Part shown: in pieces, positions 7,031 through 60,429 of the stretch
How positions within the stretch are numbered: the stretch's first letter is position 1
How the letters are laid out: each line of letters starts with the position of its first letter
The notes under the pieces: generated by a model
What the model was told of the DNA's origin: nothing
Database searches by the model: none
The model's input: only the letters and a program-made list of their open reading frames with translations
Made by a program: the position numbers and the translations under genes
From: Eledone cirrhosa
Taxonomy: Eukaryota
Length of the DNA: 64,000 bases
Assembly (NCBI GenBank): GCA_964016885.1
Contig: OZ024746.1
Span: 93,496,001 to 93,560,000 of the forward strand
Direction of reading: 5' to 3'

Positions 7031-7400
7031 AGTCTCAAGCTGCAGATAATTAGATGTTGATTAGTTGACAGCTCAACCCCTCTCTTACATCAGGAAAAAT
7101 GTGAACAAACAAATATTGTAAGAAAATTTATATAATGGTACATGACTAACAATTATTCATTGTTTTTCAATTTTCCATGCTTGCATGGGTTAGATAGGTC
7201 TTTTCTGGTAGAGCATCCCCTCAACTTCCTGCAGTCTTTCATCATCTCTTCTATGAGCTTCAATAATTTAAGATCAGCTCTCACAATTTAATTATATATA
7301 TAATTATATAATAAAATTAAGATAAGCGGAGCAAGCAAGATTCAAACAATTTTTTTAAATAAATAAAAAAATATAATTTAAATATTCACCTATTCCTTTT

Positions 7401-7480
7401 GCTTTTACCGACGGTTTCACTTCACAAAAGATTGGAAATCCTAGGGACTTCCAATGGAAATGTTCAGATCTTCAGAAAGC
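7401..7480 (-). ncRNA. Type I hammerhead ribozyme with long stem II, inside a ~370-bp insert (7310-7677) between TA tracts
   Basis: Minus: GCTTT-CTGAAGA-[50 nt incl. ATTGGAAGTCC cta GGATTTCCAAT]-GAAA-CCGTCGG-TA-AAAGC; 5-bp stem I, palindromic stem III ACCGTCGGT. Confidence 0.75.
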
Positions 7481-7679
7481 ATTTTCCCTACCTAGGACAA
7501 AAGTCCCTGGAACGGCAAAATATATTGCCACCTGCCAGCTAGCACAGGATCGAATGAGGCCGTAAACTTGACCTGCGCCTGAACCAGCCCTTAGTAGAAG
7601 CGGAAGTAAACATAGACGTGTTGTCTATCACGCCACTAAAAATAGCAGCTAAATAAAACAACGGATTTGTTCTCTAATA

Positions 7680-15248: not shown

Positions 15249-15363
15249 ATAGGAAAATGTTCAAGACCCCGTCGGCAGAGCTCAAGCCGTTTCGACGGCT
15301 ATTTCAGTCCAGAAATAGCCGTCGAAATGGCTTAAACTCAGCCGTCAGGGTCTTGAACATTTT

Positions 15364-15368
<5 letters not shown>
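15249..15368. repeat. 120-bp hairpin/palindrome abutting (TA)n
   Basis: 57-bp arms (ATAGGAAAATGTTCAAGACCC...GACGGCTATTTC / GAAATAGCCGTC...GGGTCTTGAACATTTTCCTAT), 6-nt loop, about 6 mismatches. Confidence 0.9.
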
Positions 15369-15443
<75 letters not shown>

Positions 15444-15477
15444 AAGAAATTAAAAGATGGTTAAAAAAAGTTCCATA

Positions 15478-15548
15478 TATTTTATTATGCGCATTTCAAA
15501 AACAAATATCATCCTGGGACGATAGTTGCGTTCTCATCAGATAAAATA
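15478..15548 (-). ncRNA. Type I hammerhead ribozyme (left arm)
   Basis: Reverse-complement twin of 15580-15650; one variant converts a U-G to a C-G pair in stem II. Confidence 0.75.
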
Positions 15549-15579
15549 AGGTAACATGATATGATGCCTAAAAATACCT

Positions 15580-15650
15580 TATTTTATCTGATGAGAATGC
15601 AACTATCGTTCCAGGATGATATTTGTTTTTGAAATGCGCATAATAAAATA
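15580..15650 (+). ncRNA. Type I hammerhead ribozyme (right arm)
   Basis: TATTTTAT-CTGATGA-[36-nt hairpin]-GAAA-TGCGCA-TA-ATAAAATA: 8-bp stem I, palindromic stem III ATGCGCAT, predicted cleavage after 15642. Confidence 0.8.
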
Positions 15651-15775
15651 TATGGAACTTTTTTTAACCATCTTTTAATTTCTTCTTATATATACTCCCG
15701 TCCAATAAACTGTTGAGTGTTACTTATCTGATATATGCATAGTTTTATTGTTCTACAATAAAACTCACCTCCTAC

Positions 15776-31019: not shown

Positions 31020-31845
31020 CTAGGGGAGGGTAAAATTCCCGAGATCCATGGACGAGTTCTCTCCAGCGGTCTCTGTCCCTCATTATCGCTGCCATGTCCT
31101 GCATCTCCAACAGACCAGTGTCTGTCCTTAGGGCATCAACATACTTTAACCTTGGTCTTCCTCTTCCAGTGTGTCAATGTAGGGGCTCCCACAGGAGCAC
31201 TGAGTGCAATTTCAACTCTGGATGTCGGTGAGCATGTCCAGCTAAACTCAGTCTCCTCTGTGTCACTTTTGAGCTGACTTTTGGGAGGCTCCCATACAGC
31301 TCTGAGTTTTTCATCCTCTGATTAATGTTCAGAGCCATCCTCAGCATTCTCGTGTAGCACCCTTCCACCATCTGAGTGAGTTTCTTGGTCAGTGTCCAAG
31401 TCTCAGACCCGTACAGCAGCACAGACTCCATGACAGCAATGAAGAGGCGGATTTTCAGGTCTTTACGAAGGTCCGACTTCCACACCGATCTCAAGCTGTG
31501 GCACACCACCCAGGCTTTGCCCTTCCTCTCAACCACATCATCTTCCATATTCCCAATCTTTGCTCCCAAATACAGGAAGCCCTCAACCAATTCTAGCGGC
31601 TTCCCGCCTACATTAGTGATCCCCTCCGGCTTCCCGCCTACATTAGTGATCCCCTCCGGCTTCTCAACATTCCCTACCAGATATTTTGTTTTAGTCTTAT
31701 TCATTCTCAGCCCCACACTCATCGACACAGTCTCAACCTCTTGCATCAAATCCTCTGCCTCCTTCACTGGATTTGTCACCAAAATTATGTCGTCGGCAAA
31801 TTCAGCATCTGATACCTTTTTCGCCTTAACTCTCCTGCTCTGAGC
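31020..31845 (-). pseudogene. RTE-group LINE 3' part (RT motif FADD to C-terminus)
   Basis: [10 protein letters not shown]...[10 protein letters not shown]...FLYLG...[22 protein letters not shown]...RRLSLAGH; in-frame 30-bp duplication [10 protein letters not shown] x2. Confidence 0.9.
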
Positions 31846-31927
31846 ATATATATATATGTGAATATATATATATATATATATATGTATATATGTGAATATA
31901 TATATATATGTATATATATATATATGA

Positions 31928-32003
<76 letters not shown>

Positions 32004-32317
32004 CATCTCCATTTAACATCAATTTTCTGTTAGACAGGTCATCGACGTTATGTGACAGGTCAAGCTAGTTGGCTGCACTGTACTGTCCTCAAATGGCAGG
32101 GATTTTTACAGCTCGATGCCCTTCCTAACACTAAAATTGTTTACATATGGTGCAGCCAACTGGCCAGACCCTCCTCATAATGCTACCACCCAGCTCCACA
32201 CTGTAAACATGGTTAGTGTTAGGAAGGGCATCCAGGAGCTGTAAAAAAACCTGCCTAACCCATGCAAGCATGGAAAAATAGATGTTAAAAGGTGATGATG
32301 ATGATGATTTCCCACCC

Positions 32318-33175: not shown

Positions 33176-33234
33176 GATGGATTAAGTTGACTACCCATTA
33201 CTGTTGCCTACATGGGTAGTCAACTTAATCCATC
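33176..33234. repeat. Perfect 23-bp inverted repeat with 13-nt loop
   Basis: GATGGATTAAGTTGACTACCCAT / ATGGGTAGTCAACTTAATCCATC. Confidence 0.9.
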
Positions 33235-44793: not shown

Positions 44794-44829
44794 TCTTCTG
44801 ATGAAGGACTAGCGTCCGAAACGTTAAGA
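44794..44829 (+). ncRNA. Minimal type I hammerhead ribozyme in a pLTR-like fragment (44750-44914)
   Basis: TCTT-CTGATGA-aGGACtagcGTCC-GAAA-CG-TT-AAGA; palindromic AACGTT stem III typical of Penelope-element HHRs. Confidence 0.8.
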
Positions 44830-44926
44830 CCCTCTTCCTGCTATTTTAAGCGTTAACCTAATATGTACCTTCCATATACTGTACCGATTGTGTTGTTATT
44901 TCTGTTTACCTTTTACATACATACAC

Positions 44927-49741: not shown

Positions 49742-50705
49742 ATCATCATCATCATTATCATACGTCCACTTTTCCCTGCTTGCAAGGGTGGGACGGGTCT
49801 TATTCAGCACAGCATCTCTCCACTCGTCACGGTCCTTCGTCATCTCCACCGTGAACTTCAATGATCTGAGGTCTGTTCTCACCACCTCCGCCCATGTTTT
49901 TCATGGTCTACCTCTACCACGTCTTCCTTCAACTGGCATTTCCTGACACTTCTTCACCCATCGGTCATCCTCCATGCGCATCACATGTCCATACCACCTC
50001 AGTCTCCTCTCCCGTACACTACATTCTATCCCTCTCAGACACAGTTTCTCTCTCAACACATTTATGCTTGGTCGTTCATGCACATTGACATTGCACATCC
50101 AACGGAGCATGCTTGCCTCATTTCTCTCCAACTGTCGCATATCCTCTGCAGTTGCTGTCCATGTCTCACTACCATGCAGCATCGTGCTCCTCACACAGGC
50201 ATCATATAACCGGCCTTTCGTACGCAGGGAGAAACCCTTCTTCGTCAGCAGAGGAAGCAGCTCCCTAAACTTCTTCCAACCCATCCTTATTCTAGATACT
50301 ATGGCCTCGGAACACCCTCCTCCCATGCTAATCTGATCTCCTAGGTACCGGAAGCTATCCACCACTTCTATAGCGCCCTCCTGCATTTGAAAAATGTGTC
50401 TATCAATGCGACTTCTACTGTCTAATTTCCCTGTACACCTACTGCATACATATTTCTCCCTACCTGTTAGTTTGCCTGCTATCCCGCTACATCTCTTGTG
50501 TACCCAGGATCTGCATTGTGTGCATTTTATAGAATTTATGCCAGTTCCTTTTCTGCATATCAAACATGGCCATTTCCCTGACGGAATCAGAGTTTTGTCC
50601 TCTTTTCTACTCATCAACACTTTTGTCTTAGCTAGGTTCACTCTCAGTCCTCTTGCTTCCAACTGCTGTTTCCATAGCCAGAATTTATTCTCTAGCTCCT
50701 CTAAA
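49742..50705 (-). pseudogene. RTE family A LINE, 5'-truncated, with PHD-like Cys/His finger following the RT core
   Basis: GLRVNLAKTK...WPCLICRKGTGINSIKCTQCRSWVHKRCSG...YVCSRC...FRYLGD...LHGSETW...RRLRWYGHVMRM; (GAT)n tail. Confidence 0.9.
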
Positions 50706-50868
50706 AATACACAAGATCGTACAACCATTTCAGCCCTTCATATCAGCACCTCTACTGTCCTAGAACCAGTACTGTAACTATTAGCACCACCAACATAATT
50801 AACACTACCTGATCTACAGCTCTGATTACTCCCACCACTACCAGCATTGTATTATTACCACAAATGTT

Positions 50869-53545: not shown

Positions 53546-53629
<84 letters not shown>

Positions 53630-53632
<3 letters not shown>

Positions 53633-54394
53633 TAGTTAAGCAAAACAAGACCACAAATTTCACAAGGAAGACATTATTAAAAGATTGTCAACATATTTAG
53701 TTTGATGCAAAGAATGTAGAGAATAATAATAATAATAATATTAATAATAATAATGCCCGTTTACAATTCTTTCGCTACTCCTTATAATATTTCAAGATCA
53801 GATGACTATGTATCATAATTGATCTGGTTCAGTTGAAAATAATTAACATATTTAAAAAAAACAGAGTGGCTCATCGGAACTCAAAGGAATATAAATTAAA
53901 ATAATGTTACATAATATAATGTTCCATATATTAGTTTTTACTATGGTGCCTTTGTTTCATCAGCTGTCAGCCATAATAAAGCAGTACTCATCTGCCTCAG
54001 TACTCAGATCTCACACAATGCAGCCTCGACAGATGAGTACTGCTTGATTATGGCTGACAGCTGATGAAACGAAGGCACCATAGTAAAAACTAATATATGG
54101 AACATTATATTATGTAACATTATTTTAATTTATATTCCTTTAAGTTCCGATGAGCCACTCTGTTTTTTTTAAATATGTTAATTATTTTCAACTGAACCAG
54201 ATCAATTATGATACATAGTCATCTGATCTTGAAATATTATAAGGAGTAGCGAAACAATTGTAAACGGGCATTATTATTATTAATATTATTATTATTATTA
54301 TTCTCTACATTCCTTACATCAAACTAAATATGTTGACAATCTTTTAATAATGTCTTCCTTGTGAAATTTGTGGTCTTGTTTTGCTTAACTAATG
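53630..54394. mobile_element. 765-bp near-perfect foldback element adjoining (TA)n
   Basis: Arms 53630-53994 and 54030-54394 (365 bp, about 6 mismatches seen), 35-nt spacer, no ORF. Confidence 0.9.
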
Positions 54395-54575
54395 AATATT
54401 TCCAGCTCTGCGCACCTAACTTCTGCATGAACCCAGCCACCTAGCTGCTTTCTACTGCATATTGCACATTGAGCACATGCCTTTACGCTTTGGCTTCTAA
54501 CTAACTCACCAATCTTTCCTCTCATATCTCCTCTACTATCTCAATCTCTCTCTTTAAGATTGGTTACTCTTGAAC

Positions 54576-54651
<76 letters not shown>

Positions 54652-54652
<1 letters not shown>

Positions 54653-55229
54653 TAGCCGAATTACCCGCGCCTTGCTGCGTTTCACACATTTTTTTGTAAG
54701 AAAATGATGATTGATTTTAAATCAGTGATATAATTTATGGAGAAAAACTCTGCATTTCAATATTACTCAATGTAAAATGTTATGCATGAAAAATTGGAAA
54801 ACATTATTTTTTGTAATATATCAAATCGAAATTACATTATTAAATCTTATTCTTATTTTGTTTCTTGTAATTAATTTTTTTCAAAATATCAATTCAAAAC
54901 TTGATCATTATTTTATTTGGGCTTCCAATATTTTCACTATAGGGGGTTTAACCCCATTAGGATGTCTTAATATTATTGAAATTTGCTGAAATTTTGTGAA
55001 TAGGTCATTTACCTATGGTTTAAATATCATATAAATCGAAAGGAAAAAGTTTCAGCAGGGGTTTGTGCCCCCGGAGAACCCTTTGATTAAAATGAAATAT
55101 ACTTATCCAAGTACCCTGGGCAATGTAGTTTCAGAATATATATAGTTAGGGGGAGTCTATCTCAAAAACCATAGCAGGAGTTTGTGAACAAACAAACAAA
55201 CAGACAGACAGGAGTAGAGTGTATTTAAT
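54652..55229 (-). mobile_element. Non-autonomous Helitron-like element
   Basis: On minus ends with a GC-rich hairpin-like segment then CTAG-T; (CTGT/TTGT)n near the other end. Confidence 0.55.
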
Positions 55230-55529
55230 AACAAAGTGGAGCTGTTGCATAATAGATTTATTGTTCAATCCTGGTTACAAATGTTTCAACAAACAGCTGG
55301 TTTCTGATCTGGATGATGCTCCAGACCAGATTCCAAAACGGTCTGATCCTCAGATAAGTGTTTTCTCAACATCTGATATAGGTTTTTGTTGTGATAACAC
55401 TGGTCTGAGGATCAGGCTGTTTTGGAATCTGCTCTGGAAGCATCAATCTGGATCATGAGCCGGCTGTTTGTGAAACATTTGTAACCAGGATCGAACAATA
55501 AATCTCTTATGTAACACCTCCACTTTGTT
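55230..55529. mobile_element. Diverged foldback element with a hammerhead motif in each arm
   Basis: ~142-bp arms (AACAAAGTGGAG... / ...CTCCACTTTGTT), short spacer 55372-55386. Confidence 0.8.
55400..55488 (+). ncRNA. Type I hammerhead-like ribozyme with ~60-nt stem II
   Basis: CTGGT-CTGAGGA-[long hairpin]-GAAA-CATTTG-TA-ACCAG; the twin on minus (55271-55358) has a better stem II (TCTGGTCTGGA/TCCAGATCAGA) but a broken stem I. Confidence 0.65.
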
Positions 55530-55711
55530 CTTGTTATATATGTTTATATGTATATATACATATATATAAATCTTATTTCTTTTCTATTATAAGTTGAGCC
55601 AACTTATGCAGCTTCATATGCAAATGAGATTAATCACCTCATTTACACAGACGTAAAACTATATATTCTCGGCTGTTTTCAAGTCCAGCAGTTGCAAGTG
55701 TGGGAGGGATC

Positions 55712-56003: not shown

Positions 56004-56074
56004 GTCGTCAAGTATTAAATTTGTAGAAATTTGAAAAAAGAAAACAAATTTCTACAAATTTCATACTTGACGAC
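56004..56074. repeat. 30-bp inverted repeat hairpin beside (TA)n
   Basis: GTCGTCAAGTATTAAATTTGTAGAAATTTG / CAAATTTCTACAAATTTCATACTTGACGAC. Confidence 0.9.
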
Positions 56075-58718: not shown

Positions 58719-58786
58719 TATATGATAAGGATTCGGGACATCGACAGCTGAGTTCCTGCCATGTCAACAGCTATATATATATATAT

Positions 58787-59059
58787 AATATATTAACAAA
58801 TGGAAAGTATATTTATAAAACCATATTTATTTCATTATACATATTTCAAGGACACCAAAGCAAATTATGGTGCGCTTTCATCAGATATATATAGATCAGT
58901 TTTATAAAACTGATCTATAATATAGATCAGTTTTATAAAACGGATCTATATTATATTTTATCTGATGAAAGCGCACCATAATTTGCTTTGCTGTCCTTGA
59001 AATATGTATAATGAAATAAATATGGTTTTATAAATATAGTTTCCATTTGTTAATATATT
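58787..59059. mobile_element. Foldback element with hammerhead motifs in both arms and a doubly palindromic spacer
   Basis: ~100-bp arms; spacer = two copies of palindrome TATAGATCAGTTTTATAAAACTGATCTATA (58890-58919, 58921-58950). Confidence 0.85.
58954..59018 (+). ncRNA. Type I hammerhead ribozyme (right arm)
   Basis: TATTTTAT-CTGATGA-[30-nt hairpin]-GAAA-TATGTA-TA-ATGAAATA; twin on minus at 58828-58887 has a shortened stem I. Confidence 0.7.
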
Positions 59060-59149
59060 GTATTTTTACTTCAAAAATTTGTTGAGTGCTTTATATCAGT
59101 TATAAAAAATATTTGCTTGTTGTATCCCAACAAATTAAATATAACTTCT

Positions 59150-59459: not shown

Positions 59460-60031
59460 ATCTCTTTCTCTTAATTTTGAGTATATTTTTTTGACCGGCC
59501 AACTTCCTGGTGGCAAGGTTGTAAAAGAAAAGAAATTGTCATCCCTTGAATCGCAAGAATGTTTTGCAAATTTTGAAGGTGCCAGCTATCGCAGCCATTT
59601 GTAGACTATGAATTAGGGAGCTGCGCTCTTTGTCCTCAAATCCAAGTTCAGTCATACTTTGGTCCAAACGGGTTAGTATATAACCCGTAGCTCCAATAAT
59701 GATAGGTATGAAGCTAAAGGTGTATCTTGGATACTGGATTTTTAAACTCCTCATCAATGGTCCGTAGATGTCCTCCTTCTCCTGTATTTTTCTGACAACG
59801 TTTACACCAAGTGGGCAGCTGATCTCCACAACAGAACACGTTTTCAATGTGTGGTCCCAAACAACAATATCAGGCCGGTTGTGCTTTAATTTGGTGGCAG
59901 TTTTTATTTTCAGGTTCCACCAATATTCCTTGGTGCCATCTGTCTCAATATATTCTTCCTCATTTGTTGTTAATTTTGTTTTCCGAAGTGCGTTCCAGAT
60001 GGTTCTAGCTATCCCATCGTGTCTCATGGGG
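59460..60031 (-). pseudogene. R4/Dong-clade non-LTR retrotransposon, 5'-truncated, restriction-like endonuclease domain and 3' UTR
   Basis: RHDGIAR...HNRPDIVVWD...VEISCP...EKEDIY..L...IPIIIGATG; open frame 59539-60027; flanked by (TATG)n on both sides. Confidence 0.85.
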
Positions 60032-60429
60032 TATGTATGTATAGAATTATGTATGTGTAACTGTAGATAGAATTATATATATGGATTTATGTGCAGAAAT
60101 AAACATATATTATATAAATATGTGTGTATGTATGTGTCTGAGAGAAATATATATTGATGTGTATATATATATACATATATGTATGTATATGTGTATATAT
60201 ATATATATATACATGAGAGAAATATATATTGATGTGTATGTATATATATATATGTGTATGTATGTGTGTATATATGTATATATATGTATTTATATTGTAT
60301 CTTTATATATATATATAGAGAGAGAGAGAAAATTGAGGTTGGTAATGGCACATGGAATATATAAGAGACAGAATACTTTTTTGTGAAAAAACATATAATT
60401 TTATAAGGTAAGGAAATAATGAAGGGTAT

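Follow-up and report, generated by a model that had tools for sequence, protein, structure and literature searches.

Diverged head-to-head repeat ends with a type I hammerhead motif and a 60-nt stem II: a likely Penelope-type insertion predicted to be inactive

The role of hammerhead ribozymes in Penelope-like elements (PLEs) is still an open question in the field. It is raised again by a foldback in the 64-kb window (the whole stretch of DNA analysed here), in which each of two opposed arms carries a hammerhead motif with a stem II region of 59 to 60 nt. How did this structure arise, is its long stem II a trait of a repeat family or an accident of one copy, and can it cut? The foldback consists of two mutated, head-to-head repeat ends of 150 bases, each with a type I hammerhead motif whose stem II measures about 60 bases. 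We consider it likely that these ends arose in one insertion by a PLE enzyme from uncut RNA, and the hammerhead is predicted to be inactive at this locus. The assignment to Penelope-type elements is drawn from architecture, for a locus that comprises the 150-nt ends only.

The foldback and its two hammerhead motifs

The window consists of animal DNA rich in repeats, among them numerous (TA)n, (CA)n and triplet runs, and holds broken retroelement frames. Broken non-LTR retroelement frames lie at 31174-32064 (-) and 49901-50737 (-), with a weak RVT_1 match under the cut-off and a PHD finger over the cut-off. A frame of 177 codons at 59539-60072 (-) has no Pfam match at E 0.01 but resembles that end of R2/R4-type non-LTR elements which encodes the restriction-like endonuclease. 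Self-BLAST of the window identifies a head-to-head inverted repeat at 55227-55532 with arms that are 82.7% identical over 312 columns (E 5e-80). According to self-BLAST and alignment, the left arm (55227-55375, minus strand) is a terminal fragment of about 150 nt of a high-copy repeat with its head toward the centre, and self-BLAST and sequencing contigs define the right arm (55380-55532, plus strand) as a terminal fragment of the same repeat. Between the arms lies the turn (55370-55390), a short loop that is left unpaired and includes the palindrome ATAT (55376-79); the centre of the foldback is found about 25 nt (25.5) 5' of the right core. One contig of 152 nt bridges the turn from 55259 to 55410 with zero differences and comes from run X1, possibly the assembly's own sample. 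The 3' segment that follows stem I (55489-55532 on the plus strand) is common to both arms and has the same end point in each, and both arms extend through the predicted cut site and stop 49 nt past it. Within the hammerhead-bearing parts, 17 of 138 aligned bases differ between the arms (10 transitions and 7 transversions, besides 3 gap events), giving a p-distance of 0.123 (95% CI 0.073-0.19).

Judged by the sequence, the foldback is apparently inserted in the AT-rich end of a flanking stretch (54651-55226). This stretch is single copy in the window, starts right after a (TA)n run, has (CAAA)n(CAGA)n at the end that adjoins the foldback, and resembles a non-autonomous Helitron-type element. 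The right flank (55533-55570) is a degenerate (TA)n run, and AT-rich sequence borders the foldback on both sides. Neither a target-site duplication nor a one-sided tail (30-40 bp where present) can be seen at the foldback; both are optional in EN+ PLEs, and masking of 55534-55640 in the contig comparison hides the 3' end of the family. The arms end without a clear AC-rich stem-loop, and a stem-loop at their 3' end was rejected as a candidate start of reverse transcription, with only -3.5 to -5 kcal/mol and unlike forms in the two arms. The strong self-BLAST matches listed include no further copies of this repeat in the window.

The first-pass annotation had reported CTGAGGA...GAAACATTTGTA in each arm, and sequence matching bears this out: perfect matches of the 12-mer number exactly two in the window, at 55472-55483 (+) and 55276-55287 (-). 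Outward from the centre, each arm presents one stem I strand, CTGAGGA, a spacer of 59 to 60 nt, GAA, stem III, the predicted cut after an A and the second stem I strand, which corresponds to the type I hammerhead core CUGANGA ... GAAA ... NUH in the correct order. In the right hammerhead (55400-55488, plus strand), stem I is formed by 55400-04 and 55484-88, the core half lies at 55405-11 and the stem II region at 55412-71; its 3' part (55472-55483) comprises GAA at 55472-74 and stem III at 55475-82, with the predicted cut after A55483. Stem I of this arm, CTGGT/ACCAG, retains 5 of 5 pairs as had been claimed, and its stem II region of 60 nt is decayed. The left hammerhead (55271-55358, minus strand) has its stem I 5' strand at 55358-54, core half at 55353-47 and stem II at 55346-55288 (59 nt, about 21 bp). 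Its 3' part (55287-55271) consists of GAAAC and stem III at 55287-77, a predicted cut after 55276 and the stem I 3' strand at 55275-71. The stem I 5' strand of the left arm reads CTTAT, which breaks two of the five pairs and keeps three.

Stem III has 3 bp including A15.1-U16.1 and a 2-nt loop in a near-palindromic arrangement that is too tight as a monomer; self-pairing as a dimer is worth -2.9 kcal/mol. The canonical G10.1-C11.1 pair at the base of stem II, which is highly conserved in hammerheads though with known exceptions, is absent, with U-U in both arms, and related contigs have U-A (60-67%) or U-G (20-27%) at this place. U-U is found there in 14 of the 26 animal rows (Hydra-clade) of File S2 of Craig et al. 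2021 (PMC8557442), is tolerated according to PMC3088659, and occurs at the helix II base of the active axolotl ribozyme HHR_Amex2 (PMC7229834); unlike for U-U, the portions of the literature covered hold no support for U-A at 10.1-11.1. None of the 18 Rfam matches up to E 10 on 55200-55560 belongs to a hammerhead family, and the microRNA matches at the foldback are all far under their gathering scores. Across the whole window, the best 150 of 172 Rfam matches are just sub-threshold ones, mostly of microRNA models on microsatellites.

Stem II in the arms and in the repeat family

In the left arm, the spacer forms a rod of about 21 bp (-26 kcal/mol, z -4.81) that 0 of 200 shuffles equal in stability, so this arm indeed retains the long paired stem II ascribed to it earlier. 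The right spacer forms this rod weakly (-12.5 kcal/mol, z +0.79; 156 of 200 shuffles as good). When the right arm is folded alone, a hairpin that hides the core has a probability of 0.75 versus 0.005 for basal stem II, and the hammerhead fold costs 3.8 kcal/mol. No variant is listed among related contigs for the stretch that forms this hairpin (55400-417). A plus-strand transcript that spans the foldback would fold arm against arm into a hairpin of about 145 bp (-204 kcal/mol), in which each hammerhead pair tested has a probability of 0.000. The hammerhead is thus predicted to be off at this locus.

The sequence 55130-55640 was compared with four sequencing runs at 80% likeness, two of which (X1 and X2) represent one public sample. 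Matching contigs number 358 in X1 and 342 in X2, most of them 80-95% alike, and 0 in the runs X5 and X8 from other organisms, which is no proof of absence there. Summed depth at 55400-417 reaches 4869 (X1) and 5685 (X2) versus 6 to 7.5 for single contigs; the ratio of 650 to 920 is a rough sign of hundreds of copies and no true copy number. Contigs with shared sequence further 5' of the arm amount to 18+8 = 26 in X1 and 19+8 = 27 in X2, which marks the arms as 5'-truncated fragments of a longer element. The strand switches at four joints in X1, as expected from other foldbacks, and one family contig of 599 nt has 429 nt 5' of its match. No tandem units are present at the locus.

Variation within the family is unevenly distributed. 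Among the 40 of 43 variant rows at a fraction of at least 5% that are listed, none affects any of the 29 places in core, stem I or stem III, and 26 of the 60 stem II places are variable (P 4e-6). This contrast would have a P of 0.002 if the 3 unlisted rows all fell in the core, and seeding on conserved words may enlarge it. With the rod folded from the window sequence alone and each family letter scored singly against its partner, six of the 11 family majority letters within stem II improve the predicted pair (55418, 55432, 55449, 55462, 55467 and 55471), four lie in bulges or the loop, and one (55420) breaks a wobble. At least six improving letters are expected by chance with P 0.001-0.007, depending on transition bias; without 55471, the pair adjoining the core, 5 of 10 improve (P 0.002-0.02). 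Listed variants affect 11 of the 14 stem II places that are unpaired and 15 of the 46 that are paired (P 0.004), a contrast that loop indels may inflate. The pairing improved by majority letters, together with the concentration of variation at unpaired places, indicates that the family keeps the rod and that the right arm has decayed from it, so that the long stem is a family trait rather than an accident of a single arm. The first-pass annotation would have been refuted by a consensus lacking stem I/II pairing; the majority letters of the family instead preserve stem I and strengthen the pairing of stem II.

The improved pairs do not amount to covariation: comparison of the arms gives 0 of 25 pairs altered on both sides, and variation in the family was read as unphased fractions for single places in one sample. 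Compensatory swaps hinted at by loose ends of contigs (agreement 0.57-0.62) were not counted as covariation because they involve different contig sets. In four tests for a contact between the apical loop and the flanks (loop I-loop II contact), 55, 267, 1090 and 1480 of 2000 shuffles were as good as the native sequence. A pseudoknot of apical loop II with the flanks is not supported, the best value (55 of 2000) having been obtained in one of the four tests and the other arm failing. Pattern searches of viral and prokaryotic contig collections returned 0 relatives; of two metagenome matches that were rejected as relatives, one (L001) lies within a bacterial-type coding stretch, and the other (L002) has neither stem I nor similarity outside the pattern. 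Five arm words of 10 to 11 bases do not occur in the consensus files of Craig et al., where line wraps could conceal a match.

We lean toward an active hammerhead in the family at large. A possible though less probable reading, compatible with the insertion model, is that the family hammerhead is a non-cutting relic, in which the retrotransposon protein would use core and long stem for binding or priming and catalysis plays no part. The missing G10.1-C11.1 pair, the competing hairpin over the core and the passage of both arms through the cut site all fit such a relic, as does the report that hammerhead cleavage is dispensable for insertion of the anole element in vitro (PMC11167929). It is harder to reconcile with 29 of 29 places in core, stem I and stem III at which no family variant is listed, and the argument from stem II base pairing is weakened by the U-U found there both in animal PLEs and in the active axolotl ribozyme. 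If the family hammerhead is active as we favour, the parent element would have had a slow ribozyme assisted by dimerization or by protein, with its 3-bp stem III, near-palindromic loop and the hairpin competing for the core; stem III, being tight and near-palindromic, points to dimeric cleavage in the parent. The long stem II is apparently kept as a paired rod and would most likely serve as a handle for folding or protein binding. The copy at 55227-55532 itself is a decayed example that adds little beyond the value of the family.

Origin of the foldback

Other hammerheads in the window bear on how the foldback arose. A full descriptor (stem I of at least 5 bp, core, a folded spacer of 25-110 nt and stem III of at least 3 bp) has 5 hits in the window versus a mean of 0.017 per shuffle (60 dinucleotide shuffles, maximum 1), and with stem I relaxed to 3 bp there are 7 motifs versus 0.1 per shuffle. 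The left hammerhead at 55271-55358 is not among the descriptor hits because its stem I is broken beside the core. Long-stem motifs outnumber short-stem ones by 7 to 1, and a long stem II is the usual form within this window. Hammerhead-bearing head-to-head foldbacks number four (15440-15692, 53625-54399, 55227-55532 and 58785-59062), not three as implied when the present one was called the third. In this order, their stem II regions measure 36, 97, 59-60 and 30 nt, and the distances between centre and right-hand core are 22, 135, 25.5 and 38.5 nt. The arms differ at 4 of 116 (15440-15692), 7 of 370 (53625-54399) and 4 of 111 bases (58785-59062), which leaves the foldback at 55227-55532 as the most diverged (P 8e-6 for 17/138 versus a pooled 15/597 in the other three). 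Its earlier description as an older foldback is supported if arms begin identical.

The other three foldbacks have features of their own. The one at 15440-15692 is young, carries intact type I hammerheads with an 8-bp stem I, a 36-nt stem II (z -3.37) and a perfectly palindromic stem III, and is a better candidate for cleavage than the hammerheads at 55227-55532; near it, a second palindrome spans a (TA)n run at 15249-15368. The foldback at 53625-54399 is also young and has a CCGAUGA core, a 3-bp stem I and a possibly branched 97-nt stem II that is no better than shuffles (z -0.41), with a second CTGATGA about 90 nt closer to the centre. At 58785-59062, the hammerhead has a 30-nt stem II, a small palindrome is duplicated at the turn, and another inverted pair (58731-58771/59235-59272) flanks the foldback across (TA)n. 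A solo type I hammerhead at 7400-7481 (-) combines a 6-bp stem I with a 50-nt stem II (z -2.99) and U-U at the stem II base, and with its 4-bp stem III and 3-nt loop could act as a monomer. The sole short-stem motif found is a minimal hammerhead at 44794-44830 (+) with a 4-bp stem I, a 13-nt stem II and a palindromic ACGT stem III. Small isolated palindromes or inverted pairs at 33176-33234, 56004-56074 and 32095-32255 showed no hammerhead core in the scan.

Several published properties of PLEs match the foldback's architecture. Their insertions often carry an inverted, 5'-truncated copy at the 5' end (PMC8557442), in most cases such copies are joined head to head and the junction holds a palindrome (PMC3846280), and hammerhead pairs on opposite strands have been described at distances of 100-700 bp (PMC4209133). 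Targeting of (TA)n and the same layout of core and stem III are reported for Hydra-clade PLEs (PMC8557442). The purified protein of an anole PLE introduces nicks into AT-rich DNA and extends both strands; it initiates reverse transcription at an internal site with uncut RNA as a template, and the hammerhead of this element cuts only with the protein present (PMC11167929); cleavage as a dimer has been described for PLE hammerheads (PMC6765202).

By analogy, we propose that a Penelope-type RT-endonuclease nicked AT-rich DNA at this locus and that reverse transcription would have started about 50 nt 3' of the cut site, at the end of the segment 55489-55532 if the internal start of the anole protein (PMC11167929) is a guide. 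The template RNA would have been uncut, as suggested by the extension of both arms through the cut site. Copying may have halted about 25 nt 5' of the core, and the second arm may have been made from the same template either by snap-back of the cDNA, toward which we lean slightly, or with the other DNA strand serving as primer. The arms would later have drifted apart through mutation. Both arms depart jointly from the family majority at 55420, 55421, 55427, 55442, 55467, 55471 and 55495, pointing to a single source molecule or subfamily, with gene conversion between the arms also possible. Whether the parent was the pLTR of an autonomous element or a non-coding, retrozyme-like derivative seems about evenly balanced.

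The letters that the arms share against the family suit any single-template origin, and the common end point of the arms resembles that of terminal inverted repeats. A single inserted copy could thus have been duplicated in inverted orientation by template switching during DNA repair or replication, or a MITE-like DNA transposon could carry the hammerheads by chance. We consider such an origin improbable, since the four hammerhead families with foldbacks in the window are unrelated and yet all head-to-head, with three turns 22-39 nt from the core, and since other contigs carry family sequence on 5' past the turn. The head-to-head arrangement of four unrelated foldbacks rather suggests that their shape is tied to the element's own copying. 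It is very unlikely that the host retained the copy for a function as hairpin RNA (e.g., as a small-RNA or editing substrate): the predicted 145-bp hairpin of a transcript would suit this role, but any inverted repeat gives such a fold, the arms show 12% divergence as well as indels, and every microRNA match in Rfam stays far under its gathering score. Palindromic chimeras are a known artefact of long reads, but a fold-back of this kind in sequencing or assembly can practically be dismissed, as had been argued from the diverged arms, because the 17 of 138 differences fall at different places relative to the family and the turn-crossing contig matches the assembly exactly.

An insertion by a Penelope-type enzyme from uncut RNA remains our preferred reading, and the family leads to a broader but doubtful proposal. 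Animal Penelope-type elements may hold a large, overlooked class of hammerheads in which stem II is a structured domain of 30-100 nt that standard models miss; the rod and the core-hiding hairpin described here would then form a switch that stays off until the RT-endonuclease or a second copy binds. Such a switch, if true, would explain insertions made from uncut RNA. With its unvarying core and selected 20-bp arm, the family offers a direct test of cleavage gating versus binding of the element's protein.

Relation to known hammerhead systems

The comparisons below refer to the passages and tables of the cited papers that were covered. In File S2 of Craig et al. 2021 (PMC8557442), the stem II region measures 12-26 nt across 26 of 26 animal rows, and the 59-60 nt found here are over twice the longest of these. 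The core search of the same study used a spacer of 7-17 nt, which a stem II of 59-60 nt would escape. Together with the missing Rfam hammerhead match, this agrees with the earlier prediction that short-stem pattern searches would overlook the motif. Published searches rely on descriptors with short stem II, and the 7 to 1 excess of long-stem motifs in a 64-kb window suggests that hammerheads may be greatly undercounted in genomes of this kind; groups reported without hammerheads may need re-examination. We found no description of animal PLE hammerheads with a rod this long in the literature surveyed, and the parts covered of PMC10085705 and PMC6155905 hold nothing further on long stem II. The view that the extended stem II is unusual for PLE hammerheads therefore stands against the animal rows, but not within this window, where such stems are common, nor against plant PLEs, which provide a precedent.

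The closest likeness is to EN+ Penelope-like elements and especially to the pLTR hammerheads of the Hydra clade (PMC8557442, PMC4209133), which share the type I topology and a 5-bp stem I, a 3-bp stem III with a tiny near-palindromic loop, and the U-U at the stem II base seen in this copy. As in EN+ PLEs, the hammerhead lies near the element end, the target is TA-rich, an inverted 5'-truncated copy is present, and the hammerheads form a pair on opposite strands. The differences concern stem II, which here has about 20 bp with two internal loops compared to helices of 7-8 bp in PMC4209133, and the U-A or U-G at 10.1-11.1 that distinguishes the family from Hydra-clade hammerheads. No ORF for the telomerase-like RT and GIY-YIG endonuclease of EN+ PLEs is linked to the 150-nt ends at this locus.

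Poseidon of Anolis carolinensis (Frangieh et al. 2024, PMC11167929) is the source of the mechanism invoked above for a locus known from sequence alone; unlike in Poseidon, the foldback has no one-sided tail and its arms end without a clear AC-rich stem-loop. Animal non-LTR retrozymes (PMC7229834; 10.64898/2026.07.22.740005) are likewise high-copy repeats with a type I hammerhead and have been proposed to derive from PLE pLTRs. They yield linear and circular RNA monomers and, unlike this locus, consist of tandem non-coding units that each carry a hammerhead; the passages compared describe them without a long helix II.

A long stem II is not unique to this copy, and its known side is that of plant PLE hammerheads with 48-54 nt. 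In the spike-moss elements PLE-X1_sMoe and PLE-X1_sTam, the core halves are separated by 54 and 48 nt (PMC8557442 File S2), but these inserts are tabulated as a short stem with a long loop and flagged as deviating, unlike the paired rod found here. Eight Naiads, including octopus and bobtail squid families, have an "HHR_half_core" with core halves 35-50 nt apart (PMC8557442). These half cores share the long insert, with halves possibly in either order and a likeness drawn from spacing alone and not from sequence, and are probably a precedent for the long stem II described here.
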